Assembly: GCA_046160785.1 (NCBI GenBank)
Contig: JBJXHE010000017.1
Span: 8,038 to 72,037 of the forward strand
Origin: Planctomycetota bacterium
Lineage (GTDB): Bacteria; Planctomycetota; UBA1135; JACQFD01
Length of the DNA: 64,000 nt
Reading direction: 5' to 3'
Shown: piece by piece, positions 3,306-42,130 of the stretch
Position numbering within the stretch: the stretch's first letter is position 1
How the letters are laid out: every line of letters begins with the position of its first letter
Made by a program: the position numbers and the translations under genes
Notes under the pieces: generated by a model
Database searches by the model: none
The model's input: only the letters and a program-made list of their open reading frames with translations
Told to the model about the DNA's origin: nothing

Positions 3306-5582
3306 TTAAGATTCAACTTCATAGAACGCACCCTTGAACTGAACGACAACATTCTTGCCGAGCGCGACACACGACGCGAGTTCCGGTTCCTTTGCGATCA
3401 GCGCGAAGTAGTCGTCCGAAAGAAACTTAATTTTAACAATATTGGTTTTGTCACGATCGGTAAACGTGTTTTCAACCCAGACATTGTTAACGTTCTGAAA
3501 AACGCGCTTTCCAACATTTCGCGTATTGGCGCGAATCGCGTCGGCGAGTTTTCCGCCGTCGCGCCGCTCCAATGATAGTATTACTTTTCCAGCAGCAGGC
3601 GGAGCGGTATTCGGTGCGGCGGCCGACGTCGAAGCTAAGTCTGACGCATTCTTACTATCTTCGACCGCGACTTCTCCAGAGGCTTTCTTTTCTAATGTTT
3701 CGAGCCTTCGTACGGAATCACGAACTTCATCTTCGAACGCGTCGCGGTCGCCGGCGAGGCCGCCGCCAAACGTTTCGCCCCATCCCGGACGTGGATTTGA
3801 TATACCGCGCGCGCTCGACAATCGTTGATTCTCTTCGACGACCAGAAATGATGTATACGGCGTAATAATATTATATTCTTTTCCGAGGCGCTTTATTTCA
3901 TCTATCAATTCGGGGTTGCTGCCGCGCAGGCGAATCTCATCCAAGAGGAATCCTACTTTTCGACCGGCCCAGAGCGCGGCTGTTGTATCATATTTTTCCT
4001 CGACTCTCGGAAAGTAAACTTCATAGGTAAATTCACGTTTCGATTCGCCGAACCGTCCGGAGAGTTTTAGTATCTTCTTTCCGTCGCCGCGATACCGGCC
4101 CGTCACCACGAGCTGGCTTCCGCGAAACAAATCGGGAAGCTGCCGCGGATATACATCAAAAAACTCGGCGTCGCCGCCGTCGATCGCAACGTCGGAAAGC
4201 ACGGGATTCGCTACTTTATCAAATAACGCGGAAACTTTTATTTCAACGTCTTCCTGCGGATGTACATATTCGCGAGCTGCCTTCGATTCGTTTGCGAGCG
4301 CGTCGAGTAATTGTGTATTAACGTCGAAGCCAACGCCAAATGTAAAGATTCGAAGGCCTTTTGTATTCTTTCCGCGGACTTTATTAAGTAATTGATTTTT
4401 ATCTGTAATTCCGACTGTCGGCAAACCGTCGGTTAAGAAAAATATCATTTGCATGCGTCCGGGCGCGGGTTCGTGGCGCAGCGCCGTGGAGAGCGCTTCA
4501 TCAATATTAGTGCCTCCGCGCGCTTCGAGTTTTTGGACCCACGCGCGAGCGCCTTCAATATTATCTTTTGTTGTTTCACAAATTTCCGGGCGAAACGCTT
4601 CGGCCTCGGTCGAAAATCGTATCATTGCAAAACGGTCATTGGCTGTCAGCCTTCCTAAACATTGCGCAAGCGCCTTCTTAGCTTGTTCCATCTTTTCGCC
4701 CGCCATGCTTCCCGATGTATCAAATACAAAAATAACATCTTTCGGCAATATTTGCGACGGCGCGAGATCGAAACGCGGCGTTAGCGATAACGTAAAGAAT
4801 CCGGGAGAGCCCACCGCGCGATGCACGAGAACGAGCGCGCCGAAGTCGCTTTGCGGCGAAACGAAAGTTAATATAAAGTTTTTGATTTGCGACGCGCCAG
4901 CGCCTTCATACGAAAAACGCGCAGCCTTTGAATTGATTTGTTTAACATCGAGCGCGTGCGTTGGCGAGTAGATACTTGCGATCGCGCGCTGCGAATCGAT
5001 CGTGCCTTCAATAATAAAAGACCGGATTCCCGCAGGAGAAAGCGCCGCGAGGCGCAAAGGTAATATATATTCTGAGAAACCTGCGGAGTCGCCGAGCAAA
5101 GTTGTATATTTTAATTGTACACGCGCCTGTCCGCGCGCGGGCACCGGGAATACCGACGCGCGCACGCAGCCGAGCCCGGCCCATTCGAGAATCGCGGGGT
5201 CGCGCTGCGATCGAACAATTCCTTCGTAGATCGAGCGCGCCTTATCTTTATCTAACAATTCCGCTTTTTGTGCTTTGCCGTCGATCCACAATTGAAAATC
5301 CGATACGGTCGCGCCCTCCGGAAGCGGCCAAATATAAGATTCTTCCGCGGGGGCGTTAGACGGATTATTAAATATCTGTTCGAGTTCCGTCGTTGCAGTC
5401 GTGTCATTGATGCGGATCGTCGCTCGTAGCGTGTCGAGATGCAAAACGCGCTGCGAAACCGATTGAATTGTAAATTCACGGTCGCGCGGAAGCGGCGCGA
5501 GTTGCCGCAGCGGCGTTGAGAATAATGGTATTGATAATGATAACGATAAAAGTGTAACTGTAGCGAGTCCCATTGATAGCAT
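3306..5582 (-). CDS. Secreted VIT + von Willebrand factor A domain protein (paralog B)
   Basis: The N-terminus is hydrophobic. A VIT-like region reads TIRINDTTATTELEQIF..YIWPLPEGATVSDFQLWIDGK. The VWA MIDAS motif is DVIFVFDTSGSMAGEK ... FLTDGLPT. The C-terminal ~65 aa are shared with the upstream paralog. Confidence 0.8.
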   Translation of the reverse strand: MLSMGLATVTLLSLSLSIPLFSTPLRQLAPLPRDREFTIQSVSQRVLHLDTLRATIRINDTTATTELEQIFNNPSNAPAEESYIWPLPEGATVSDFQLWIDGKAQKAELLDKDKARSIYEGIVRSQRDPAILEWAGLGCVRASVFPVPARGQARVQLKYTTLLGDSAGFSEYILPLRLAALSPAGIRSFIIEGTIDSQRAIASIYSPTHALDVKQINSKAARFSYEGAGASQIKNFILTFVSPQSDFGALVLVHRAVGSPGFFTLSLTPRFDLAPSQILPKDVIFVFDTSGSMAGEKMEQAKKALAQCLGRLTANDRFAMIRFSTEAEAFRPEICETTKDNIEGARAWVQKLEARGGTNIDEALSTALRHEPAPGRMQMIFFLTDGLPTVGITDKNQLLNKVRGKNTKGLRIFTFGVGFDVNTQLLDALANESKAAREYVHPQEDVEIKVSALFDKVANPVLSDVAIDGGDAEFFDVYPRQLPDLFRGSQLVVTGRYRGDGKKILKLSGRFGESKREFTYEVYFPRVEEKYDTTAALWAGRKVGFLLDEIRLRGSNPELIDEIKRLGKEYNIITPYTSFLVVEENQRLSSARGISNPRPGWGETFGGGLAGDRDAFEDEVRDSVRRLETLEKKASGEVAVEDSKNASDLASTSAAAPNTAPPAAGKVILSLERRDGGKLADAIRANTRNVGKRVFQNVNNVWVENTFTDRDKTNIVKIKFLSDDYFALIAKEPELASCVALGKNVVVQFKGAFYEVES

Positions 5583-5699
5583 TCCGGCCGGCCGACTTTC
5601 GCCTCCGATCCAAGCCCCGGCAACTGCGCGGATCGCTGACGGCGCGCTACCTCGTGGTATCGCCCGCCGAATCCATCACGAATCCCCGCGTTTTTTCTT

Positions 5700-5747
5700 A
5701 GGGACAGGTTAGGGGACAGGTTTGTACCTGTCCCCGGGACTGTCCCT
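5700..5747 (-). other. Two-tier GC-rich hairpin overlapping the stop codon of the upstream VIT-VWA gene
   Basis: The structure is AGGGACAG-gtta-GGGGACAGG-tttgta-CCTGTCCCC-ggga-CTGTCCCT, with a 9-bp inner and an 8-bp outer stem. Stop TAG (5746-5748) sits in the outer stem. No U-run follows on the coding (minus) strand, so it is not a canonical intrinsic terminator. Confidence 0.6.
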
Positions 5748-8031
5748 AGTCATGAATTTCATAAAAGACGTCGCCGACCTTAACGACGACGCGTTTGCCG
5801 AGCGCGAAACACGCGGCGAGCGAGGGCTCTTTCTTAAGGAGACTAAAATATTCGTTCGACAGGAATTGTATTTTTACAATTTTCTCTTTGTAGCTTTCGG
5901 TAAACGCCGATTCCACCCAAACGGTATCTATCAATTGGAACACGCGCGCGCCAACGGTCCGCGTCGTTTTTTGTAATGTCGGTATTGTAGGCGTGCGAAT
6001 TATAGTATCGGCGGGTCCGGGATACGTTGGACCGCCCGCGGCCGGAGTCGTCGGGCCGCCGGGTGCTGGCGTCGCCGGGCTACTTCCACCGGTAGGCGGC
6101 GAGGGAACTCCGGGCCGGCGGCCGGGACGCGCTGAAGGCGGATCCGGAGAGCTAAATCCGCCCGTTTGTTTACTTAACAAATCCGCTGCTTCGCTAGCAT
6201 CCACGGACGATGCGCCGGTTGTATTTGTAGCTAATGTTTCAAACCTCTTGCGCGCCGCGGCCGCTTCGCCGCGTTCCGAATTTGTTAATGTTCCGTCGCC
6301 GCGAAGGCGCGATGCGTCGACGCCGCGCGCGGCCGCGAGCCGTTCGCCGTCTTCAACAACTAAAAATGATGTGTAGGGAGTGATGATATGATATTTCCGC
6401 CCGACGCTCTTAATCTCATCGACGAGTTCCGGATTGTTACCATTCTTGCGGATTTCGTCGAGGAGGAATCCAACTTTTCGCGCCGCCCATAATTTACGAA
6501 TAGAATCATAACGTTCCTCTTTCGCTGGAAAATTAAAACTACAATTCCACTCTCGCGTCTCGCCAGCGACGTTGCCGAGCACTCGAATGGTTGTTATTCC
6601 GGCTCCTTGATAGCGGCCCGCGACGACGAGCCGGCCTCCGCGGAAAAGATCGGGCAGGCGTTTTGGATATATTTCAGATACGGCGAGGCCGTCCAAAAGA
6701 ATTGTTGTATCTGTTACGACTGGGCTCGACACTTTATCAAAGAGGGCGGAAATCTTAATTTCAATATTCTCTTCCGGACGCGCGTATTCCGTAATTCCGC
6801 GCGTCGTGTCGGCGAGTGAATCGAGCAGAACTGTATTCACGTTGACGCCGACGCCAAATGTAAAGATTCGAGTTTTGCGCCGGTTCATCGACTCGACCGA
6901 TCGCAAAATTTCTTTAACATCTGTGGATCCCACGGTCGGGATTCCGTCTGTTATGAAAAGAATCATGGCAAGGCGGTTTTCATTAGCTACTAATCGCAGC
7001 GCGGCGCTCAAAGCATCATGTATATTCGTTCCTCCGGCAGCTTCAATATTACGAATACAATTCGAAGCCTCCTCGACGTTTTCATTGGTTTTATCCAATA
7101 ATTTTTCGCTCTGGATCGAAACCTCCGAGCCGAAACGAATGAGAGCGAAGCGGTCGTGTGCTTCGAGGTGGCGAATACAATAATCGAGAGCGAGCTTGGC
7201 TTGCTCGATTTTCTCGCCGCGCATGCTGCCCGAAGTATCGCATACAAATATAACATCTTTTGGAATGGTGCGATTTGCATCAATGTTAGGATTGAAAACT
7301 AATGAAAAGAAACCGTCTTCGCCGGGCGTTCGATGCGCGACGGCCATCGATCCGAGCTCGTTGCCCGGATTTGCGTAAAGCAGCGAAAAATCTTTAACTT
7401 GAGATGGATCGTTCGTCTCAAACGAGAATTTTGATATCTTGTCTGTTGTTATAAATGCGGTGGTGTGCGTCGGCGAATAGGCCGTTAATATTTGTTTGTC
7501 CGACTCGACTGAACCGTCAATCACAAATGATCTGACGCCGCGCGGAGCGAGCGCGGCGAGCCGCAGCGGAAGCACATATTCATGAAACGGCCCCGTGGAA
7601 TGTATCAAATGAGAATATTGTAATTTAACTTTGGCGGTTCCACGCGCGGGCACCGGAAAAATCGACGCGCGCACGCACCCCTGGCCCGCCCATTCGAGAA
7701 GTCCGGGATCGCGCCGGCTCATAACAATTCGTTCGTAAACTCCTCGCGCCGTTTCTTTATCAAGCACCTCCGCGCTCATGGGTTTTCCGTCCATCCATAA
7801 TTGAAATTGCGTTACGGATGCGCCCTCCGGAATCGGCCAAAGATACTGTTCTTCGACGGGCGAATTCCGTTCATTACGAAACGTTTGCTCGATTTCGGTC
7901 GTCGCGACGTTATTAACAATTCGGACGTTCGCCGATATCGACTCTAAATGTAGCGTCAGAGCCTGATCGTTGGATGTCGCGCCCTGAACGGCGGCAAGAC
8001 TAAAAATGAATAATAGTAGTGTATTCAGCAC
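5746..8031 (-). CDS. Secreted VIT + von Willebrand factor A domain protein (paralog A)
   Basis: A signal peptide is present (MLNTLLLFIFSLAAVQGA). The VIT-like N-terminus and MIDAS motif (DVIFVCDTSGSMRGEK ... FITDGIPT) match paralog B. There is a Pro/Gly-rich linker, and the conserved C-terminal domain is shared with 3306-5582. Confidence 0.8.
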   Translation of the reverse strand: MLNTLLLFIFSLAAVQGATSNDQALTLHLESISANVRIVNNVATTEIEQTFRNERNSPVEEQYLWPIPEGASVTQFQLWMDGKPMSAEVLDKETARGVYERIVMSRRDPGLLEWAGQGCVRASIFPVPARGTAKVKLQYSHLIHSTGPFHEYVLPLRLAALAPRGVRSFVIDGSVESDKQILTAYSPTHTTAFITTDKISKFSFETNDPSQVKDFSLLYANPGNELGSMAVAHRTPGEDGFFSLVFNPNIDANRTIPKDVIFVCDTSGSMRGEKIEQAKLALDYCIRHLEAHDRFALIRFGSEVSIQSEKLLDKTNENVEEASNCIRNIEAAGGTNIHDALSAALRLVANENRLAMILFITDGIPTVGSTDVKEILRSVESMNRRKTRIFTFGVGVNVNTVLLDSLADTTRGITEYARPEENIEIKISALFDKVSSPVVTDTTILLDGLAVSEIYPKRLPDLFRGGRLVVAGRYQGAGITTIRVLGNVAGETREWNCSFNFPAKEERYDSIRKLWAARKVGFLLDEIRKNGNNPELVDEIKSVGRKYHIITPYTSFLVVEDGERLAAARGVDASRLRGDGTLTNSERGEAAAARKRFETLATNTTGASSVDASEAADLLSKQTGGFSSPDPPSARPGRRPGVPSPPTGGSSPATPAPGGPTTPAAGGPTYPGPADTIIRTPTIPTLQKTTRTVGARVFQLIDTVWVESAFTESYKEKIVKIQFLSNEYFSLLKKEPSLAACFALGKRVVVKVGDVFYEIHD

Positions 8032-9176: not shown

Positions 9177-10811
9177 ATGACAGATTCGTCGCCCGAGCGA
9201 AATCGTTGGTTTGAAAATATCTACCGTCCCGCCGTCGAGAAATCGGCCGAACGGGAAATATCATTTGCAACGCCATCCGGAATTCCACTCGAGCCGCTCT
9301 ACGGCGCCGGCGACGGGATGCCCGGCGAATATCCGTATACTCGCGGCATCCGGCCGTCGATGTACCGCGGGCGGTTTTGGACAATGCGACAATACGCGGG
9401 CTTCGGCTCGGCGCGCGAGACGAATCGGCGATTCCAGTTTTTGTTAGAAAACGGGCAGACGGGACTTTCGACCGCGTTCGATCTGCCGACGCAGATTGGT
9501 TATGACCCGGATCATCCGCTCGCGGCGGCGGAAGTCGGGAAAGTGGGCGTGCCGATTCCGTCGCTCGCAGATTTTGAGCGTTTATTTGATAATATACCGT
9601 TAGGAAAAGTATCAACGTCGATGACCATCAATTCGACGGCGCCGATATTATTATCAATGTACGTGGCGCTCGCGCGGCGGCAGAATGTACCAAAAGAGAA
9701 GATCGACGGAACTGTACAAAACGACTTATTAAAAGAATTCACCTCGCGCGGAACGTATCGGTTTCCGGTGCGGCCGTCGATGCGTCTTGTTATTGATACA
9801 ATTGCGTGGGCGAATGAAAACGCGCCGAACTTCAATCCAATTAGCATTTCGGGCTACCACATGCGCGAGGCCGGGTGTACCGCGCCGCAGGAGCTCGCGT
9901 TTACATTATCAAACGGGATTGCTTACGTTCGCGCTGCGCTCGAACGCGGATTAGATATTGATAAATTCGGCGCGCGACTGTCGTTTTTCTTTAATTCACA
10001 CAATAACCTATTCGAAGAGATTGCTAAATTTCGCGCGGCGCGGCGCATGTGGGCTAAAATTATGAAAGAGCGGTTCGGAGCAAAAAACCCGAACGCGTGG
10101 CAACTGCGTTTTCATACACAAACCGCGGGCTCCATGTTAACAAGCCAGCAACCGGATAATAACGTTGCGCGCGTTACCATTCAGGCGCTTGCGGCGGTTC
10201 TCGGAGGAACGCAATCATTACATACTAATTCCAAAGATGAAGCGTTATCATTGCCAAGCGAAGTTTCTGCGCGAACGGCGCTGCGGACGCAGCAGATATT
10301 AGCATTAGAATCGGGAGCCGCCGACGTCGTCGATCCGCTCGGCGGCGCGCCTTTTATTGAAAACCTCACTGACGACGTCGAATCGCGCGCATTACAATTA
10401 ATACAACAAATCGACGAAATGGGCGGCGCGGCGCCGGCGATCGAAAATGGATTTGTACAAAGAGAAATTCACAGATCCGCGCTCGCGTGGCAGCGCGACG
10501 TTGAATCTTCGAAGCGAAAAATTGTTGGTGTTAATTGTTATACTGTCGACGAGCCGGACCCGCCCGCGATCTTTAAGATTGATCCGAACGCGGTCGCGGA
10601 AGTGCTGGAGTCAGTCGATCGCGTACGAAAGACGCGCGATGCGGCGAAAGTTAATGATTGTCTCGACGCGCTTCAAGGCGCGGCGCGCGACGAGAAACTT
10701 AACTTAGTATCGTATTTGTATGATTGCGTTGAGGCGTACGCGACGGTGGGGGAGATGTGCGAGAGGATGGAGAGGGTTTTCGGTAAGTATCGCGCGCCAT
10801 CGATTTTTTAA
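9177..10811 (+). CDS. Methylmalonyl-CoA mutase family, large (substrate-binding TIM-barrel) subunit without a B12-binding domain
   Basis: The sequence contains [24 protein letters not shown] and [18 protein letters not shown], the Tyr/Arg pattern of MCM rather than ICM. It ends at ~544 aa with no DxHxxG B12 domain. The listed ORF start at 8898 is antisense to the peptidase, so ATG 9177 is chosen. Confidence 0.8.
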
Positions 10812-11018
10812 GTTATAATTAGCAGTAGTTATTTATTGTTAATGACTCCAGGGGACTTGATCGCGTCGTGTCACGCGTGCTCGCGCGCATAACCGTGGCG
10901 CCGGAGTATTAGTAAATACAGACGCGCCTGGACCACTGCCGCGGACGGCGATACGTAGCGGACCAAGGTCCGCTCCTTCATACGCGCCGTCATTAGATAT
11001 ATTAATAATGATGACGAC

Positions 11019-11054
11019 GGGGTCAGGCATTTCAATTAGGGGTGCCTGGCACCC
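11019..11054. repeat. Hairpin H1 (degenerate copy) at the inner end of the left palindrome arm
   Basis: GGGGTCAGGCAtttcaattaggggTGCCTGGCACCC. It has a 6-bp perfect core stem plus imperfect extension, and it is homologous to H2. Confidence 0.6.
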
Positions 11055-11117
11055 AATGGGACATAACTGTCGCTTTGCAGCCACAACTTCTTTATTAACA
11101 ACATTCTCAAATTTAGA

Positions 11118-11152
11118 GGGGTCAGGCACTCCTAATTAGGGTGCCTGACCCC
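11118..11152. repeat. Hairpin H2 (perfect 12-bp stem, 11-nt loop) at the inner end of the right palindrome arm
   Basis: GGGGTCAGGCAC-tcctaattagg-GTGCCTGACCCC. Confidence 0.8.
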
Positions 11153-11377
11153 AGGCTCCCGTTACTTAATCCGTCATTATTAATATTCCCGGTGGTGTAT
11201 CGCGAGCGCAGCGCGCCGTGGTGCGCGGAAGAAGGCGCTACGTATCGCCGAGCGCGGCAGTGGTCCAGGCGCGTTTGTAACAATTACTACATTTGCGCCG
11301 CGGTTTAGGCGCGCGAGCACGCGATACACACCGGGCCCTCGCGGGAGCGAGCTACTCACCGGGCCCCGGCGGGAGCC

Positions 11378-13750
11378 TTAGTTTTTCTTAGTTTTCGCAG
11401 ACGCGGTTTTATCTGTTGTAGATGTGTATATTACAGTTTCGGTCGCGAGTTTTGACACTGCCTGAAATTGGACCGCAACGGGAATATCAATTTCGAGGCC
11501 TGGTTTTGCGATGGATTCATTAAGCATTCCGTCGTCGCGGAAGTAGCCGCTGAGAGGTTTATTTTTTATAGTTACTGTAAAGGGCGCGGGCCCCGCTTGA
11601 ATGACGCCGTTTACTTTCTTAAATGTAAATTTGAAACTGTTATTTTTGTTGACAGGAGTGGCGACGCCGTTTGCGTCGAGAGTGTACACGAGTCCGAGGC
11701 CGCCAATATTAATAATGACGGTTTGGCCTTCCGGGTTAAATCCTTCCGGGACGTCGAGAGTGCCCTTTAACGTTAGTGAATCTTTAAGAGCTTTATGAGG
11801 ATCGTGGTTCAATTTGATGGAAAGAGATGTAATATCAAATCCCATGAACGTCGGAGGCGCTTCGAATCTACGGAGTGCGATTGGGATGACCACAGGATCA
11901 TTGAACGCGTCGGCGCTCGTAACGGTAATATGTACAATTGTGGTTTCCGGCGCGACCGCGATATTTCCGCCATTAAATGTAATATCAATAAAATCGCCGG
12001 GGCCGCCCGTCGGGTTTACAAGATTAATCGCGTTCGAATCAATCGAAGCTCCCCATGAAACGTCGCTCGGGAAGTTATTAATAAAACCCTGCGGATCGAA
12101 CGAGGTTGAAAACGTTCCAAATAGATCCGAAGTTGAGGTGGTTCCGAAACACGGCGGCTGCGACTGAAGCCAGCGCTGCGCCGGCTTCGGGCTTTTGTTA
12201 AATATGCGGTTCGCGCTTGGATCGACTACAAAAAATTCGGATTGAAACGTGCCGAGGTCAAAAAACGATCCGTTAAAAACTTTCTTATTTGTATTTTGAT
12301 CGGTAATCGAAACCTTTGCCGATTTTGCATCTTTATTAATCAGGAAATTGCCGGGCCCGTTGGGATTCACAATGAGCGGAAACGAAATCGATCCCGTCGG
12401 CGGAAGATTCTTAATATTAACGTTATTGATCTGCGGATTGCCGGGCGACAGTTGCGTAGTGCCGTTGGCGACATATTGTACATTCGTCGGGTTGATACTC
12501 GACCGGAAGTAATCGGCGGCTTGCTGCGGGAACATTTGTAATCCGGAGCCGGGTCCGCCCGTCTGGGTGCCAGGTCCGCCTTCGTTGATTAGTAAATTTC
12601 CCGCTCCGTGCGTCATTTGTGGCAATGCGCTCTTTTCTTTAAAAGTAAAGATACCTGTAGACCAAGTTACTTTTGTTGAACCGCCCGTAGAAACTGCATC
12701 TGTAGTTTCGCAGAGAGGCGACTTGCCCGGCATCGGTCCGGCGAGGAGCGCCGTTCCCGCGCATCCGAGGATCGGATCGCCATCGCCAAAGAAACCAGAC
12801 GCTGTAATTAATTGTTCGCTACAACTGCCGTCCGCGCACATTTCATAACTTCGAATAATAGTTGGAATCACGGCGACGCCGAACGGAGGCAGCGCGATAT
12901 TTGTAGTGATATCGTGATCCGACACGATGTGCGGATCGCCGGGCGGCAGCAGCAGGCCCGTCGGAAACTCGTCGCCGAATTGATGCGGAAAATTATCTTC
13001 GCCGGCGTTGGGCGACGAAAGCGCAAATATAACAGATGGGTCGCCGCTTGCGGGCGTGCGCGCGGACTGTTTCGTGGTGCCGGTTAATGTTACAAATGCG
13101 TAATTGTCAGGATCATTGTTCTCTAATAAATAAAACGTAAACGCCTGGTCGCCGCGGCGGCACACTTGGAATTCACCCATGCCCGCGGTCAAGTGTTCCA
13201 AATTCAATCGTGGAATTGTAGTATCCGACGGCGACGGCTCGACGATACAAATTGTAGTGTCGCCGACGCCGGTGATGGTTCCCGCTCCGACTCCGCCCGC
13301 GAATGTTACAGAATACGTTCCGGAAACAATACAAATGGCGCCGGCAGCCGCGATCGCGCCGCCCGGAATTGGAAAAGGAAACGCGCCGCCCGCAATCGGC
13401 TGGGGGCCCGGAATTGTAGGAACCGCGACGGGCACCGCGACCGGGCCGATCACCACCGGCGCTCCGCCGCCCATCGGTGCGCACGTTAATGTTAATTCAA
13501 GCGACGCGGCGCTCGGCTGCGCGCACAGAATATTAGGATTCCATGTTACAAATGGAAGCAGCCCGATCGGAACCGTGAATCCAATCCCAGCTCCCGGGAA
13601 AACTACAGTTCGTCGCGGAAATTTTGCTAAAAATATGCTTTGCCCGCAGTTGGGCCTCGGCGTTCCCTGGCACGCGAGGATGTAGGCGACGCCCGCGGTC
13701 GCAAAAACCATAGTGACTAATAAAACACGAAGGACGATTTTTTGTAACAT
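11378..13750 (-). CDS. Orphan secreted protein, ~790 aa, no recognisable domain
   Basis: The ORF is long and uninterrupted. The ATG at 13750 gives a signal-like MLQKIVLRVLLVTMVFATAGVAYILA. The protein is rich in Gly/Pro/Thr/Asn, has several Cys pairs, and its C-terminal third looks beta-rich. I recognise no catalytic motif. Confidence 0.6.
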   Translation of the reverse strand: MLQKIVLRVLLVTMVFATAGVAYILACQGTPRPNCGQSIFLAKFPRRTVVFPGAGIGFTVPIGLLPFVTWNPNILCAQPSAASLELTLTCAPMGGGAPVVIGPVAVPVAVPTIPGPQPIAGGAFPFPIPGGAIAAAGAICIVSGTYSVTFAGGVGAGTITGVGDTTICIVEPSPSDTTIPRLNLEHLTAGMGEFQVCRRGDQAFTFYLLENNDPDNYAFVTLTGTTKQSARTPASGDPSVIFALSSPNAGEDNFPHQFGDEFPTGLLLPPGDPHIVSDHDITTNIALPPFGVAVIPTIIRSYEMCADGSCSEQLITASGFFGDGDPILGCAGTALLAGPMPGKSPLCETTDAVSTGGSTKVTWSTGIFTFKEKSALPQMTHGAGNLLINEGGPGTQTGGPGSGLQMFPQQAADYFRSSINPTNVQYVANGTTQLSPGNPQINNVNIKNLPPTGSISFPLIVNPNGPGNFLINKDAKSAKVSITDQNTNKKVFNGSFFDLGTFQSEFFVVDPSANRIFNKSPKPAQRWLQSQPPCFGTTSTSDLFGTFSTSFDPQGFINNFPSDVSWGASIDSNAINLVNPTGGPGDFIDITFNGGNIAVAPETTIVHITVTSADAFNDPVVIPIALRRFEAPPTFMGFDITSLSIKLNHDPHKALKDSLTLKGTLDVPEGFNPEGQTVIINIGGLGLVYTLDANGVATPVNKNNSFKFTFKKVNGVIQAGPAPFTVTIKNKPLSGYFRDDGMLNESIAKPGLEIDIPVAVQFQAVSKLATETVIYTSTTDKTASAKTKKN

Positions 13751-13805: not shown

Positions 13806-13842
13806 GCTACAACTGCGCACGCTACAACTGCGCACGCTACAA
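13806..13842. repeat. Tandem 15-bp repeat, ~2.5 copies (GCTACAACTGCGCAC)
   Basis: 13806-13820 and 13821-13835 are identical. A third partial copy runs into the duplicated tRNA trailer. Confidence 0.85.
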
Positions 13843-13866
13843 ATGGTGGGCGGCACAGGAGTTGAA
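13828..13866 (-). repeat. Exact 39-bp duplicate of the tRNA-Val 3' end (T-loop to CCA, 23 nt) plus 16 nt of trailer
   Basis: CTGCGCACGCTACAAATGGTGGGCGGCACAGGAGTTGAA occurs at 13828-13866 and again at 13910-13948. The second copy is part of the intact tRNA. Confidence 0.9.
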
Positions 13867-13925
13867 AATTAGCAGTCGCTAGAATTAACTAGCGGTGCGG
13901 CAATTCGTCCTGCGCACGCTACAAA

Positions 13926-14002
13926 TGGTGGGCGGCACAGGAGTTGAACCTGTGACCTCTACAATGTGAGCGTAGCGCTCTAACCAACTGAGCTAGCCGC
14001 CC
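13926..14002 (-). tRNA. tRNA-Val (anticodon CAC), CCA encoded
   Basis: Manual cloverleaf: acceptor GGGCGGC/GCCGCCC, D-arm GCTC-AGTTGGTTA-GAGC, anticodon arm CTACG-CTCACAT-TGTAG, variable loop AGGTC, T-arm ACAGG-TTCAACT-CCTGT, discriminator A, CCA. Confidence 0.9.
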
Positions 14003-39889: not shown

Positions 39890-39971
39890 AGATTGCGGGT
39901 TGGGTTACATGGCGCGAGAAAGAGGCGCGGTCTCACTTCTTATAGCGAACGGAATTATGCTGATGTTAATG

Positions 39972-40098
39972 AACGCTCCCGCATAGCGCCGCTTCGGCGT
40001 AAATCCCCATGCTCGCTAAAACAAAACGCGACGCAAAGCGTCGCGTTTTATTTTGATGCTGCGCGGGAGACGCCTCCGCGGCGCTACGCGGGAGCGTT
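39972..40098 (+). repeat. Structured repeat element E1 (127 nt): long closing stem, two conserved 29-nt blocks, apical terminator hairpin
   Basis: The closing stem is AACGCTCCCGCaTAGCGCCGC / GCGGCGCTAcGCGGGAGCGTT, 21 bp with one A-C mismatch. Blocks 39995-40023 and 40051-40079 are identical to the E2 blocks. The apical hairpin AAAACGCGACGC-aaa-GCGTCGCGTTTT+ATTTT spans 40023-40054. Confidence 0.8.
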
Positions 40099-40134
40099 AG
40101 TTTACAGTTAGCCACACAGTGCGTGAATGAGAGA

Positions 40135-40164
40135 AACGGGGACAATCCCCGTTATTTTTTATTT
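40135..40164 (+). terminator. Intrinsic-terminator-like hairpin T1 facing rightward transcription
   Basis: AACGGGG-acaat-CCCCGTT is followed by ATTTTTTATTT. The T-run overlaps stop TAA (40159-40161) of the minus-strand orphan gene. Confidence 0.5.
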
Positions 40165-40929
40165 AAACCACGAAATATCATGTCGAAGGTCGCTGTTATA
40201 AATCTTCTGGTAGGCGTCAGCGATGCGCTGTTGCGACATTGAATCGTTAGTCCACTCGTATTCGCGTATTAGATACTCTCTCGGAACAATATACTTAAAG
40301 CACTGAATCGTTTGTGAATACTCGTCTCGAGCGTTCGCATCTTCGCTAGTAACGTGATCGATACAATTCTTTATCCAAAACAAGATCAATAAATTCACGA
40401 TTAATGATATAATGAATGTGAGGGTCGCACTCAACGCCAGAATTCGAATCCAACGAGTCCGTTGCGTATCAACTAAATTCTTGAATCTCCTCACCGCATT
40501 TACAAGAAGAACAATGATCACTATCATAACGACGCAGACGAGTGCGAGAGGTACGATAAACAACAAAGGGGAATTCGCGGTGCCGCCCAGCACAAATAGA
40601 TATCCAATTATTAAGATTGGCAGATAGGGGAGGGCCGCTAACAAAACTAGACACTCAACGGATAACAGGAAGCAATCACACGCGAGGCTCATCAACGCAT
40701 ATCTTCCGTTTGCAATGAAAGACAGCATCGATAACGCCGGATACAAAATTATCAAAAAATATAATCCAGGTCGAATATCTAACATCACCCGAAAATCGAT
40801 GGAACCTTGTTTTATTAATATAGGATCCAGGAACAACAAGACCGAAGAAACAAAGCAAGCGGCCAGGCACTGAAGTAATAACTTATTTTTAACAGCAAAG
40901 AAGTGCAACTTCTCAGTGAGTCGTTGCAT
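40159..40929 (-). CDS. Orphan polytopic membrane protein (about 6 TM helices + ~70-aa soluble C-terminus), AT-richer than its neighbours
   Basis: The ORF is 256 aa with an ATG start. Six hydrophobic segments can be read by eye. I recognise no family. The DNA is visibly AT-richer than the flanking genes, but this was judged by eye and not computed. Confidence 0.55.
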   Translation of the reverse strand: MQRLTEKLHFFAVKNKLLLQCLAACFVSSVLLFLDPILIKQGSIDFRVMLDIRPGLYFLIILYPALSMLSFIANGRYALMSLACDCFLLSVECLVLLAALPYLPILIIGYLFVLGGTANSPLLFIVPLALVCVVMIVIIVLLVNAVRRFKNLVDTQRTRWIRILALSATLTFIISLIVNLLILFWIKNCIDHVTSEDANARDEYSQTIQCFKYIVPREYLIREYEWTNDSMSQQRIADAYQKIYNSDLRHDISWFK

Positions 40930-40960
40930 TGGCGTTACTCGCGACTGTTAGTTAACAGAA

Positions 40961-40988
40961 CGATAAAAGAACGGGGACAGTCCCCGTT
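40961..40988 (-). terminator. Terminator-like hairpin T2 facing leftward transcription, upstream of the orphan gene
   Basis: The plus strand reads AACGGGG-acagt-CCCCGTT (40970-40988). On the minus strand the hairpin is followed by CTTTTATCG. T2 is 18/19 identical to T1. Confidence 0.45.
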
Positions 40989-41027
40989 CTTCCTGGTGTC
41001 ACCTTCTTCACTCATAATTGCTATTAA

Positions 41028-41151
41028 AGCTCGGGGCGTCGCGCTGCGGAGGCGTCTCCCGCGCAGCATCAAAACAACAGATTGCGCGTAGCGCGATCTG
41101 TTGTTTTAGCGAGCATGGGGATTTACGCCGTAGCAGCGCGATGCCCGAGCT
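41028..41151 (-). repeat. Structured repeat element E2 (124 nt), an inverted copy of E1
   Basis: Read on the minus strand, the stems are AGCTCGGGCaTCGCGCTGC ... GCAGCGCGAcGCCCCGAGCT. They pair but differ in sequence from E1. Blocks 41102-41130 and 41046-41074 are exact reverse complements of the E1 blocks. The 17-bp apical hairpin is at 41071-41107. E2 overlaps the stop codon at 41150-41152. Confidence 0.8.
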
Positions 41152-42130
41152 ATCCTTCGTCATCCGTCATCGCTCTTCCCGCCGCCGCGACCACCGGATC
41201 TGGATAATTACCATAACGGCGTTCCATGCGGGCGTCCATGTCGGTTTCGGCCAGCGCGACGAGGCCGCCGAAGCGGCCGGCTCGTAAACATTCGCGAACG
41301 ATAACGATCAGTTGAGTTAACAAAAACAGAACTGTTATATTAAGATACGTCGCTTCGCCGGCGCTTGCGAGTTCGACGCACCACGCGAGTCCGTAAAGTA
41401 ATATTAATTCCAGCGCGAACGGGATGATTCCGGCGGTAAGCGCGGAGAGCGGGCGGCGGAAGAATAAGGATGTTCCGTGAAGCGCCGCCATGAACGCGCT
41501 GCGGCCTCCGCGAACGGCGATCGACGCGCGGCCGAGGTCGGATACTAAAATAATAAATGCAACGCTCAGCGCGAAGCCGGCCGTTTGTATATTTACAAAT
41601 AAATTAGCGGAGCCTTCCGTGGCAAATTCGCGGAGTTCGGTGGAATCGGAATCGGTCAGAAATTTTTGTAGTGATTCAAAGGGCAGGCCGTAAAAAATCC
41701 AGCGTGCCGCGCCGATGGCCGCGAGCGATAATATTGCAAGCCGCAGAAAGCGTACAAAACGCGCTCCGCCGCCCGAACAGAATGCTTTTAATCCCGCGCG
41801 CGCGTTGCGTTCGTGGCGGTGTACTAATATTTCGAGCCACCCGCCCGTTGAAAACAATCCTAACAAAAACGCGCCCAGGATCGACGCGAGCAGCGCCGGT
41901 TCCGCCGTTTGTAACTTATCGCGCAAGTCGAAGAAAATTGTATATTCCAACTCCGGGCCGAGAATGGAGGGGTCGGCGCGGTGCAGGGTGCTCGCCCCGA
42001 AGGCGCGGCCAAACGTTAGCGCCGCCGGAAGCGCGAGCGCAAAATAACCTAAACACAACGCTAATAAAATTCGGCCGCGAACCGATGCATACAATATTGA
42101 GCCGAAGACGCCTTCAAGCACGCGCTTCAT
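41150..42130 (-). CDS. Polytopic membrane protein of unknown function, translationally coupled to the M1 peptidase
   Basis: The 326-aa protein has several long hydrophobic segments. Its start overlaps the peptidase stop by 4 nt (42127-42130). Confidence 0.6.
   Translation of the reverse strand: MKRVLEGVFGSILYASVRGRILLALCLGYFALALPAALTFGRAFGASTLHRADPSILGPELEYTIFFDLRDKLQTAEPALLASILGAFLLGLFSTGGWLEILVHRHERNARAGLKAFCSGGGARFVRFLRLAILSLAAIGAARWIFYGLPFESLQKFLTDSDSTELREFATEGSANLFVNIQTAGFALSVAFIILVSDLGRASIAVRGGRSAFMAALHGTSLFFRRPLSALTAGIIPFALELILLYGLAWCVELASAGEATYLNITVLFLLTQLIVIVRECLRAGRFGGLVALAETDMDARMERRYGNYPDPVVAAAGRAMTDDEG

Follow-up and report, generated by a model that had tools for sequence, protein, structure and literature searches.

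The feature described here lies in a 64-kb window (the whole stretch of DNA that was analysed) from a Planctomycetota bacterium, in a gap between two convergent genes, as a first-pass annotation of the sequence had it and as the neighbouring gene calls bear out. The left neighbour, a methylmalonyl-CoA mutase gene (9177-10811, + strand; PF01642, E 2.5e-210), ends with its stop codon 56 nt before the palindrome, and its protein is 100% identical to the NCBI protein P0001 from a Planctomycetota MAG. The right neighbour (11378-13750, - strand) converges on the mutase gene and encodes a predicted secreted or surface protein of 790 aa. It had been called an orphan gene; it indeed has no Pfam or NCBIfam match, but 20 homologues at 34-44% identity were found, some of them carrying TSP3 or T9SS domains. 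The annotated neighbours comprise FtsX, CrtC, two VIT/VWA genes, an M28 peptidase, the mutase, the surface protein, a tRNA, ETF-alpha, an ABC gene and an S26 peptidase. An integrated island bounded by the tRNA-Val duplication was considered and rejected, the two 39-nt copies lying 82 bp apart and not enclosing the palindrome.

The palindrome occupies 10868-11332. Its two halves had been described as reverse complements interrupted by indels, and an inverted-repeat search, folding and alignment against shuffled sequences all agree: the left arm aligns locally to the reverse complement of the right arm with a score of 102 (shuffles: mean 17.4, sd 2.1, max 28), and in the RNA fold 147 base pairs join the two arms, the outermost being 10851:11339 and the innermost 11054:11118. 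The proposed ends do hold inverted repeats, although pairing reaches slightly beyond them, to ~10851 and ~11339. Folding of 10850-11350 as RNA gives -285.2 kcal/mol, compared with -180 ± 5.6 kcal/mol for shuffles (z = -18.7; 0/100 shuffles equal), and both strands are predicted to fold into extremely stable structures.

The arms contain three inverted repeats, namely 10868-10892 / 11305-11329 (25 nt, 88%), 10891-10960 / 11236-11305 (70 nt, 81% complementary) and 10999-11011 / 11174-11186 (13 nt, 100%). Exact blocks of 15 nt (CGCGTGCTCGCGCGC), 22 nt (ACGCGCCTGGACCACTGCCGCG, 10922-10943 / 11253-11274) and 13 nt (the AT-rich ATATTAATAATGA) stand as first listed, while a block listed at 14 nt is a second one of 15 nt (CGGCGATACGTAGCG). 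Homology between the arms is confined to the outer ~93 nt (79/97 aligned columns identical), the 13-mer and the hairpins discussed below. The well-conserved part of the left outer arm (10868-10960) contains the exact 15-, 22- and 15-nt blocks together with local stem-loops, and the right outer arm (11236-11329) is its inverted copy. The arm middles (~40-50 nt; 10961-10998 vs 11187-11235) are unrelated to each other; the left one, which has no right-arm counterpart, overlaps a hairpin, GCGGACC/GGTCCGC, at 10957-10974. The 13-mer ATATTAATAATGA (10999-11011) is the exact complement of its right-arm copy (11174-11186), and a third copy falls within the neighbouring gene (11706-11718). Indels of 11 and 14 nt separate the arms. 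Each arm also folds locally, with a few stem-loops common to both, and a 30-nt inverted repeat (11188-11217 / 11308-11335, 87%), created by the 11-nt insertion missing from the left arm, closes the outer part of the right arm (11188-11335) on itself. From the right terminus of the palindrome to the stop codon of the neighbouring gene runs an imperfect tandem of ~2.4 copies of a 28-nt unit (11312-11377), in which 11312-11339 and 11340-11367 are 75% identical, below the TRF threshold. A 20-nt direct repeat noted earlier at 11329-11348 / 11357-11376 is present at 18/20 positions and forms part of this tandem.

Arms that are only ~80% alike and differ by indels, intact genes on both flanks, and support from an independently assembled contig (relative L001, 95% identity), whose sequence includes the same flank and 19 nt from the start of the left arm, rule out an assembly artefact. 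The palindrome is real, is non-coding and turned up in no other lineage. The arms contain stops and frame-breaking indels, and only noise came from translating the region in six frames and from a tblastn comparison with the neighbouring protein. At gathering thresholds, a scan of the whole window with Rfam returned only the tRNA-Val; at E <= 10, the region 10700-11500 returned two noise matches (E 1.6 and 4.3). Coding or known RNA signals are thus absent from the palindrome. A mutase 3′-end origin of the arms was also rejected, since Smith-Waterman scores were at chance (12/500 and 62/500 shuffles as good).

Comparison with relatives shows that the presence of the palindrome is lineage-specific. 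In a relative with 84% mutase identity (L004/L005), the mutase, tRNA-Val, ETF-alpha, ETF-beta and ABC genes are arranged as here; the syntenic site has no palindrome, and the 790-aa gene is absent (L004). This answers in part the proposal that the mutase 3′ flank be checked for an empty site: the palindrome is absent, but the site is not clean, because the whole intergenic region differs and the 2.4-kb gene is missing as well. The so-called orphan gene and the palindrome are, in this comparison, recent additions beside the tRNA-Val gene.

The core of the palindrome, 11019-11152, is a dimer of self-complementary hairpins with the stem GGGGTCAGGCAC, of the type associated with TIRYT/RAYT-class Y1 (HUH) enzymes, and a stem-loop-rich flank of ~150 nt lies in inverted orientation on both sides of it, giving a nested palindrome of 465-490 bp. 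H2 (11118-11152) is a near-perfect palindrome of 35 nt, GGGGTCAGGCAC-TCCTAATTAGG-GTGCCTGACCCC (DNA fold -17.4 kcal/mol, z = -7.2), and the perfect 12-bp stem attributed to it is present at 11118-11129 / 11141-11152. H1 (11019-11053), of the GGGGTCAGGCA type and with a GGGGWSAS foot, is a degenerate self-complementary hairpin (DNA fold -8 kcal/mol, z = -2.4); its description as a degenerate copy of H2 was correct, the two being 77% identical as direct repeats and 80% as inverted repeats, figures that assign no relative orientation because each repeat is itself palindromic. The two hairpins start 99 nt apart, and 11015-11156 folds into a single hairpin (DNA, -32.5 kcal/mol, z = -6.3). Between them lies a centre that is non-palindromic, as claimed, with a length of 64 nt (11054-11117) rather than the 63 nt first given, and with no similarity to any sequence fetched for comparison.

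Hairpins of this type are widespread. Species-representative genomes (one per GTDB species) of many phyla yielded more than 106 stretches in an exact-match scan for the pattern GGGGTCAGGCAN{11,15}TGCCTGRCMCC, where ~1 would be expected by chance according to our rough estimate. At least 10 unrelated genomes carry multiple copies of the same 12-nt stem, with at least 20 loci in the Actinomycetes MAG MFD01213, at least 12 in the gammaproteobacterial MFD00962, at least 11 in the Solirubrobacteraceae genome MFD04944 and at least 10 in Ilumatobacter SS_bin_52. Copies of the GGGGTCAGGCAC type elsewhere are mostly intergenic and often occur as dimers, and their loops and flanks are genome-specific. 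Among the 106 listed loci, long inverted repeats around the same hairpin were not found, only short extensions plus one unrelated palindrome (L120). A literature search on the hairpin sequence itself returned only unrelated primers.

Among the matches listed, an H2-type hairpin flanks a gene for an IS200-like Y1 transposase on both sides in three loci (L078, L084, L097). The L078 protein matches PF01797 (E 1.2e-7) and NF047646 (E 3e-20, 72.5 bits, below the 80-bit cutoff), and the L078 and L084 proteins carry the motifs NHFH/NHYH and YLPLNP/YVELNP, which match those listed for subclass 2.1 (Table 1 of PMC6006769). The inverted repeats flanking TIRYT genes are reported to contain GGGG[AT][CG]A[CG] (GGGGWSAS), and self-complementary, closely spaced repeat families have also been reported (PMC6006769, PMC3733652). 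For subclass 2.1, a systematic survey found no REP-like sequences (PMC6006769), and only an 8-nt motif has been noted (PMC3733652). At the present locus, GGGGTCAG stands at the GGGGWSAS positions 11019 (+), 11118 (+) and 11145-11152 (-). H1 and H2 belong to a widespread, transposase-linked repeat class, an assignment that rests on the multi-copy genomes and the three transposase-flanking loci, because hairpins are common and single matches may be coincidental.

Two further intergenic loci in the window bear the same motif (5699-5750 and 40970-40988), making three with 11019-11152, although the stems differ. The word GGGGWCAGG occurs 5 times in the window where 0.16 would be expected, always within two intergenic hairpin loci, and 6/9 matches to GGGGWSAS fall inside the three hairpin loci. 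The repeat at 5699-5750, with GGGGACAGG words and a doubled stem (DNA fold -20.5 kcal/mol, z = -6.8), lies immediately downstream of a VIT/VWA stop codon. Relative L006 has, in the corresponding place, a TIRYT-like gene that adjoins the orthologous VIT gene and is flanked by repeats of GGGGAC words. The third locus belongs to a sibling structure (39964-41157), which also lies between convergent genes and has the same layout as the palindrome, 29 kb away. Its inverted repeats of ~122-190 nt (80%) end in inner hairpins of the form AACGGGGACA(A/G)TCCCCGTT and enclose a low-GC gene for a membrane protein of 256 aa. The sibling site is empty (20-bp gap) in one relative (L126/L127) and holds a different ORF in another (L128). 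The arms of the palindrome show no similarity to those of the sibling.

Searches for further copies of the arms returned nothing. No second copy exists in the 64-kb window, and the 22-mer at the core of the arms had 0 matches in 185,579 species-representative genomes and in IMG/VR. A 20-mer from the same core had 11 matches in JGI metagenomes, all of them chance matches of 20-29 nt, and blastn against plasmid and phage collections found none; for the outer arms (~93-150 nt), no relative appeared in any collection searched. The flanks, ...GATCGCGTC| and |ACCGGGCCCT, share no direct repeat, in line with the earlier remark that no target-site duplication could be identified, and the only direct repeat near the ends is the 28-nt tandem that includes the right terminus. 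Y1/HUH elements make no target-site duplication, so its absence fits elements of that kind. No parent IS or recombinase was found in the window or among the neighbouring annotated genes, and the window encodes no Y1 or other transposase.

On these data, we give about even weight to a reading in which an inverted duplication encloses a cluster of REP/TIR-type repeats that probably stands in the way of read-through transcription; most likely the palindrome is a group of selfish or tolerated repeats rather than a system of a new kind. What follows on its mode of origin, any present-day mobility and any terminator or insulator effect is inferred. The hairpin repeats may have been seeded by processing of single-stranded DNA, with the Y1 transposase encoded elsewhere in the genome or since lost. 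The long arms would then have come from inverted duplication at the hairpins, by strand switching at the palindrome or by transposase-mediated rejoining, and would have drifted since to ~80% identity. Persistence could be explained by the tolerance of a 3′-to-3′ gene gap for insertions. A transcript entering from either gene would be expected to fold into a very stable long hairpin, which, in the manner of REP/BIME elements, might block read-through in both directions and hold off 3′ exonucleases. We infer this read-through barrier purely, because no U-tract follows H1 (CAATGGG) or, on the minus strand, H2 (TCTAAATTTG), and a scan for intrinsic terminators across 10600-11600 returned 0 terminator-like sites. 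The locus resembles bidirectional intrinsic terminators in its position between convergent genes and in having a strong hairpin on both strands, but it differs from them in the missing U-tract and in being an order of magnitude larger.

Among the closest known systems are repeats mobilised by, or found beside, Y1 enzymes. The TIRtron/TIRYT repeats (Di Nocera et al., 2013, PMC3733652; Quentin et al., 2018, PMC6006769) share several features with H1 and H2: both hairpins begin with GGGGTCAG, fitting GGGGWSAS; like some TIR families they are self-complementary, extragenic and arranged as a closely spaced dimer; and the H2 stem is identical to the stem that flanks the subclass-2.1-like Y1 genes. 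Unlike in those systems, no TIRYT gene is present in the window, and the outer arms of ~150 nt, the bulk of the palindrome, do not feature in descriptions of TIR or REP repeats; both points count against the TIRYT reading, as do the degenerate state of H1 (z = -2.4) and the NF047646 match that falls short of its curated cutoff. REPINs and BIMEs are doublets or clusters of REP sequences mobilised by RAYT transposases (Bertels and Rainey, 2011, PMC3116915). Shared with them are two hairpin repeats, here of no assignable relative orientation, with a short spacer that jointly fold into a larger hairpin, an intergenic position between convergent genes, the lack of a target-site duplication and the IS200-like Y1 enzyme family. 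In contrast to REP sequences, H1 and H2 have no GT[AG]G foot, being preceded by GACGAC and TTTAGA, and their stem starts with GGGG. REPINs are roughly 100 bp in size, whereas the palindrome is ~465 bp; its repeats sit at the inner ends of the paired region and not, as they would in REPINs or IS, at the outer ends, which also counts against the TIRYT reading, and the searches revealed no population of copies.

A simpler history, possible but unlikely, is an accidental inverted duplication in place, by strand-switching at a pre-existing palindromic terminator and with no transposase involved; the hairpins would be ordinary gene-end hairpins sharing a common stem by coincidence, and the structure would be neutral and decaying. 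Such an accident fits a locus that is single-copy in every search, in a 64-kb window with no transposase nearby; arms that are ~80% alike, carry indels and have unrelated middles are what drift would leave, and the terminal 28-nt tandem suggests slippage. Coincidence is nevertheless hard to credit for a 12-nt stem that has multiple copies in each of at least 10 unrelated genomes and stands on both sides of Y1 genes in three loci. The element 29 kb away with the same layout, which is an insertion relative to a close relative, and the enrichment of GGGGWCAGG in hairpin loci only also argue against an accident.

Rather improbable is a classical MITE, a foldback element or an internally deleted IS that has long terminal inverted repeats and depends for its movement on a DDE transposase gene in another part of the genome. 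MITE and foldback repeats include the Correia and ERIC elements, and the palindrome resembles these in being imperfect and non-coding, in the hairpin that its transcript would form and in its variable presence among relatives. Its terminal inverted repeats are long and imperfect and enclose a short centre that is non-palindromic, and the syntenic site of a relative lacks it; the contigs of relatives break at the element edge, as they would at repeats; and the sibling, in which long inverted repeats enclose a passenger gene, is reminiscent of mobile insertion cassettes. The searches described above are unfavourable to this reading, since they revealed no target-site duplication, no second copy in the window, no match for the arm core in GTDB representatives, JGI metagenomes, IMG/VR, plasmids or phages, and no parent IS or DDE transposase, and the supposed empty site, with its altered intergenic region and its missing 2.4-kb gene, is not clean. 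Of the first-pass suggestion of a MITE or deleted IS, there survive the transposase link of the inner hairpins and the absence of the structure from the 84% relative, but not the copies, the parent or the duplication.

The sibling also raises the idea, quite improbable in our view, that the two structures represent an undescribed class of long foldback cassettes with TIRYT-type inner hairpins, in which subclass 2.1 Y1 enzymes would insert empty foldbacks and passenger genes into the convergent-gene gaps of Planctomycetota. Subclass 2.1 Y1 transposases are usually regarded as domesticated and immobile.

A functional RNA is very improbable, whether as convergent sRNA genes ending in H1 and H2 or as a long double-stranded 3′-UTR or antisense RNA, processed by RNase III and controlling both neighbours. 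The very stable fold lends substance to the long structured or antisense RNA envisaged at first, as do the local folding of the arms with their few shared stem-loops and a 25-nt segment of the right arm that is 88% complementary to codons inside the neighbouring gene. Against this stand the failure to match any Rfam family at E <= 10, the presence of only 2 compensatory pairs between the arms, the lack of conservation in relatives at 84% identity or below, and the lack of a terminator tail or a convincing promoter, the two promoter-like matches in 10600-11600 being at chance level and the one that lies inside the palindrome weak. Finally, an invertible DNA switch that flips ~310 bp through the exact 22-bp inverted repeats at 10922-10943 / 11253-11274, another early suggestion, is barely credible: both neighbours point their 3′ ends at the segment, so that inversion of a promoter would give sense transcription of neither, the weak match just mentioned is the only promoter-like one inside, no recombinase is found among the annotated neighbours, and the 22-mers are no more than the stretch in which the much longer arms are best preserved.

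With the repeat-cluster reading, annotation of the locus moves from an anonymous palindrome to a recognisable dimer of transposase-type hairpin repeats inside an inverted duplication. The stem GGGGTCAGGCAC is conserved across phyla, can reach at least 20 copies per genome and brackets subclass 2.1 Y1 genes; should these repeats prove to be mobilised, the process could well be studied in Planctomycetota and in several MAGs of soil Actinomycetota. Palindromes of this sort also coincide with contig breaks in related assemblies. As minor observations, CGGTnnGTATCGCG is common to the arms and the 3′ end of the mutase gene, 3/4 of the CGCGATAC 8-mers in the window occur in this region, and the same hairpin is preceded by an A-run and followed by a T-run in four of the loci found elsewhere (L047, L060, L098, L116).

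At 10868-11332 of the window, the first-pass annotation had described two near-complementary halves, and a repeat search of the window recovered the inverted arms as an outer pair of 70 nt at 81% (10891-10960/11236-11305), a terminal pair of 25 nt at 88% (10868-10892/11305-11329) and an exact 13-mer pair (10999-11011/11174-11186). Local alignment of the left arm with the reverse complement of the right scored 102, against 17.4 ± 2.1 (maximum 28) for shuffles. As RNA, 10850-11350 has a predicted folding energy of -285.2 kcal/mol, where dinucleotide shuffles give -180 ± 5.6 (z = -18.7), and 147 base pairs connect the halves (10851:11339 to 11054:11118). The arms had been taken as reverse complements with indels (these are of 11 and 14 nt); this holds for the hairpins, the 13-mer and ~93 nt at the outside of each arm, to which the homology is confined, but the two middle stretches of ~40-50 nt are unrelated. 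The same search recovered the perfect 12-bp stem of the inner hairpin H2 (11118-11129/11141-11152) and agreed that H1 (11019-11053), 77-80% like H2, is a degenerate copy, while the centre measured 64 nt instead of 63. At the right edge, the 20-nt direct repeat is confirmed and forms part of a 28-nt imperfect tandem starting within the right terminus. Derivation of the arm termini from the last codons of the upstream mutase was considered and rejected, the resemblance being at chance level. Separately, right-arm positions 11168-11192 are 88% complementary over 25 nt (17 nt exact) to 11700-11724, codons TVIINIGG of the neighboring 790-aa gene, and the ATATTAATAATGA core is found once more, as a third copy, in the left arm; the match could be chance, a trace of the duplication's formation, or an internal pairing site of the mRNA.

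H1 and H2 are members of a described repeat class. Genes for TIRYT proteins, a type of IS200-like Y1 transposase (Di Nocera et al.) that Quentin et al. equate with their subclass 2.1, are flanked by inverted repeats with GGGG[AT][CG]A[CG] in common, which can make up families of moderate abundance, in some cases with self-complementary members lying close together (PMC3733652; PMC6006769), while one survey reported no REP-like sequences for subclass 2.1 (PMC6006769). Both hairpins start with GGGGTCAG and fit the published description. The word GGGGWCAGG has five occurrences in the window where 0.16 would be expected, always in H1, H2 or a doubled hairpin of GGGGACAGG words directly past a VIT/VWA gene stop codon (5699-5750), and six of the nine GGGGWSAS matches fall within three intergenic hairpin loci. 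At the place equivalent to 5699-5750, the relative L006 carries a TIRYT-like Y1 transposase gene amid GGGGAC-word repeats (84-668). The VIT/VWA genes here are tandem paralogs (3306-5582 and 5746-8031; ~71% identical over 300-nt stretches), and three relatives (L002, L006, L007) have a single such gene at the corresponding place within the contig stretch fetched.

An exact-pattern scan of species-representative genomes for GGGGTCAGGCA-N11-15-TGCCTGRCMCC returned at least 106 stretches, against about one by our rough expectation for unrelated sequence, so that the stem GGGGTCAGGCAC/GTGCCTGACCCC recurs in at least 106 loci across many phyla. The matches listed include Actinomycetota, Gamma- and Betaproteobacteria, Binatia, Bacillota, Nitrospirota, Acidobacteriota, Chloroflexota, Planctomycetota and others; among them, four MAGs hold at least 20, 12, 11 and 10 loci, loops and flanks differ genome by genome, and copies mostly lie just past gene ends, often in pairs. 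In an Actinomycetes MAG (L078), Pseudoduganella (L084) and Telluria (L097), the hairpin brackets an IS200-like Y1 transposase gene. In searches with the L078 protein, PF01797 was hit at E 1.2e-7, and the NCBIfam model "REP-associated tyrosine transposase" at E 3e-20 with 72.5 bits, under the 80-bit cutoff. NHFH/NHYH and YLPLNP/YVELNP motifs in the L078 and L084 proteins, together with protein length and a weak C-terminal HTH, correspond to subclass 2.1 (PMC6006769, Table 1). A 12-nt stem conserved across phyla, multi-copy and bracketing subclass 2.1 Y1 genes is perhaps worth specialist attention. Tandem-plus-inverted arrangements of the words were seen in one Gammaproteobacteria MAG and in Ilumatobacter, and an Actinomycetes MAG (L120, 7193-7679) has a ~490-bp nested imperfect palindrome with 114-nt arms at 82%, ~70 nt from a GGGGTCAGGCAC hairpin and unrelated in sequence to the one described here.

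The palindrome separates a methylmalonyl-CoA mutase gene (9177-10811, forward strand; PF01642) from the 790-aa gene (11378-13750, reverse strand); both proteins are 100% identical to NCBI proteins named as Planctomycetota MAG. The 790-aa protein has no match in Pfam or NCBIfam, but the label "orphan" has to be dropped, as 20 homologs at 34-44% identity were found, some with TSP3 or T9SS domains, and the product is a predicted surface or secreted protein. In the Logan contig L001 (mutase 95% identical), the mutase 3′ flank is ~90% identical at the nucleotide level and runs into the left arm, of which the contig covers the first 19 nt before it ends (2518). In the JGI metagenome contigs L004 and L005 (mutase 84% identical), the window's genes recur to either side, with M28 peptidase and mutase to the left and, to the right, tRNA-Val, ETF-alpha, ETF-beta and ABC. 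The palindrome is absent between these shared neighbors, as an empty site would have it, but the 790-aa gene is absent too, and the mutase stop and the tRNA are separated by only 511 bp of unrelated sequence, with no GGGGWSAS hairpin. Five further relatives (≤84% identity) have other genes downstream of the mutase and no palindrome. Given this absence at ≤84% identity and the partial presence in L001, both the palindrome and the gene next to it are additions in this lineage, at least partly common to the 95% relative.

A second long inverted repeat of the window (39964-41157; 122 nt at 80%, arms reaching ~190 nt) has no sequence similarity to the 465-bp palindrome. Between its arms lies a low-GC gene whose product is a 256-aa membrane protein, the left arm alone forms a 143-nt imperfect palindrome, and a terminator-like hairpin of differing sequence occupies matching positions in both arms. 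At its inner ends stand GGGGACA-type hairpins, AACGGGGACA(A/G)TCCCCGTT, one of which fits GGGGWSAS. It fills the gap between convergent genes for MotB and a 326-aa protein, a gap of 20 bp in a 79-84% relative (L126/L127) and filled by a different 384-aa ORF in L128. This layout and the relatives' gaps make long inverted repeats with inner GGGG-hairpins a recurrent, insertion-like feature of convergent-gene gaps in this genome. Two further contigs of relatives, L129 (6817) and L130 (3146), end 79 nt past the MotB gene; repeats or palindromes at the ends of L001, L129 and L130 may break short-read assemblies.

We give about an even chance to the palindrome being a REP/TIR-type repeat cluster, in which a TIRYT-class hairpin dimer (11019-11152) sits within an inverted duplication of stem-loop-rich flanks. 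Y1/HUH enzymes process hairpins in single-stranded DNA without generating a target-site duplication (IS200/IS605, RAYT; PMC6006769), which fits its absence here. Palindromic hairpins are natural strand-switching sites, at which flanks could have been duplicated in inverted orientation, and a 3′-to-3′ gap would tolerate such DNA. A transcript from either side would form a long hairpin that, by analogy with REP/BIME elements, would be expected to impede read-through and 3′ exonucleases. As a whole the palindrome resembles composite REP clusters; its long outer arms and the inner-end position of its hairpins are undescribed features, although a single locus does not justify a new category.

An accidental inverted duplication with no link to a transposase is possible but unlikely; in its favor, no Y1 gene lies within the 64-kb window, but the hairpin is of the kind that brackets such genes elsewhere. 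A classical MITE or IS remnant, as proposed initially, is less probable still. No second arm copy was found within the window, the 22-mer exact in both arms had no match in 185,579 species (one genome each) or IMG/VR, and blastn of plasmid and phage collections found nothing for the arms; a 20-mer arm core had 11 matches in JGI metagenomes, which, being confined to 20-29 nt each, are ascribed to chance. The arms do not code for protein. That the element is a functional RNA is improbable: the predicted fold is very stable, but Rfam gave no family match, comparing the arms yielded only two compensatory pairs, and neither a convincing promoter nor an intrinsic-terminator tail was found at the palindrome. 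The suggested inverton is highly improbable, since both neighbors present their 3′ ends to the palindrome and none of the annotated genes nearby is a recombinase, making an invertible promoter switch implausible.

Beyond the 790-aa gene lie tRNA-Val(cac) (13926-14002, reverse strand), an ETF-alpha gene, a 252-aa ORF (at the position of ETF-beta in L004) and an ABC ATPase gene. An exact 39-nt duplication (13828-13866 and 13910-13948) comprises the final 23 nt of the tRNA and 16 nt downstream, with an additional 15-nt tandem copy, CTGCGCACGCTACAA, at 13813-13827. It looks like an integrase-type insertion scar at a tRNA; its copies are just 82 bp apart and so do not enclose the 790-aa gene or the palindrome. 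In the palindrome-free L004, 37 nt of the tRNA-Val 5′ half are duplicated at 89% (4482-4518 and 4618-4654), with the copy placed at a distance of 136 bp toward the ETF genes, a further sign that this locus is prone to rearrangement in the lineage.
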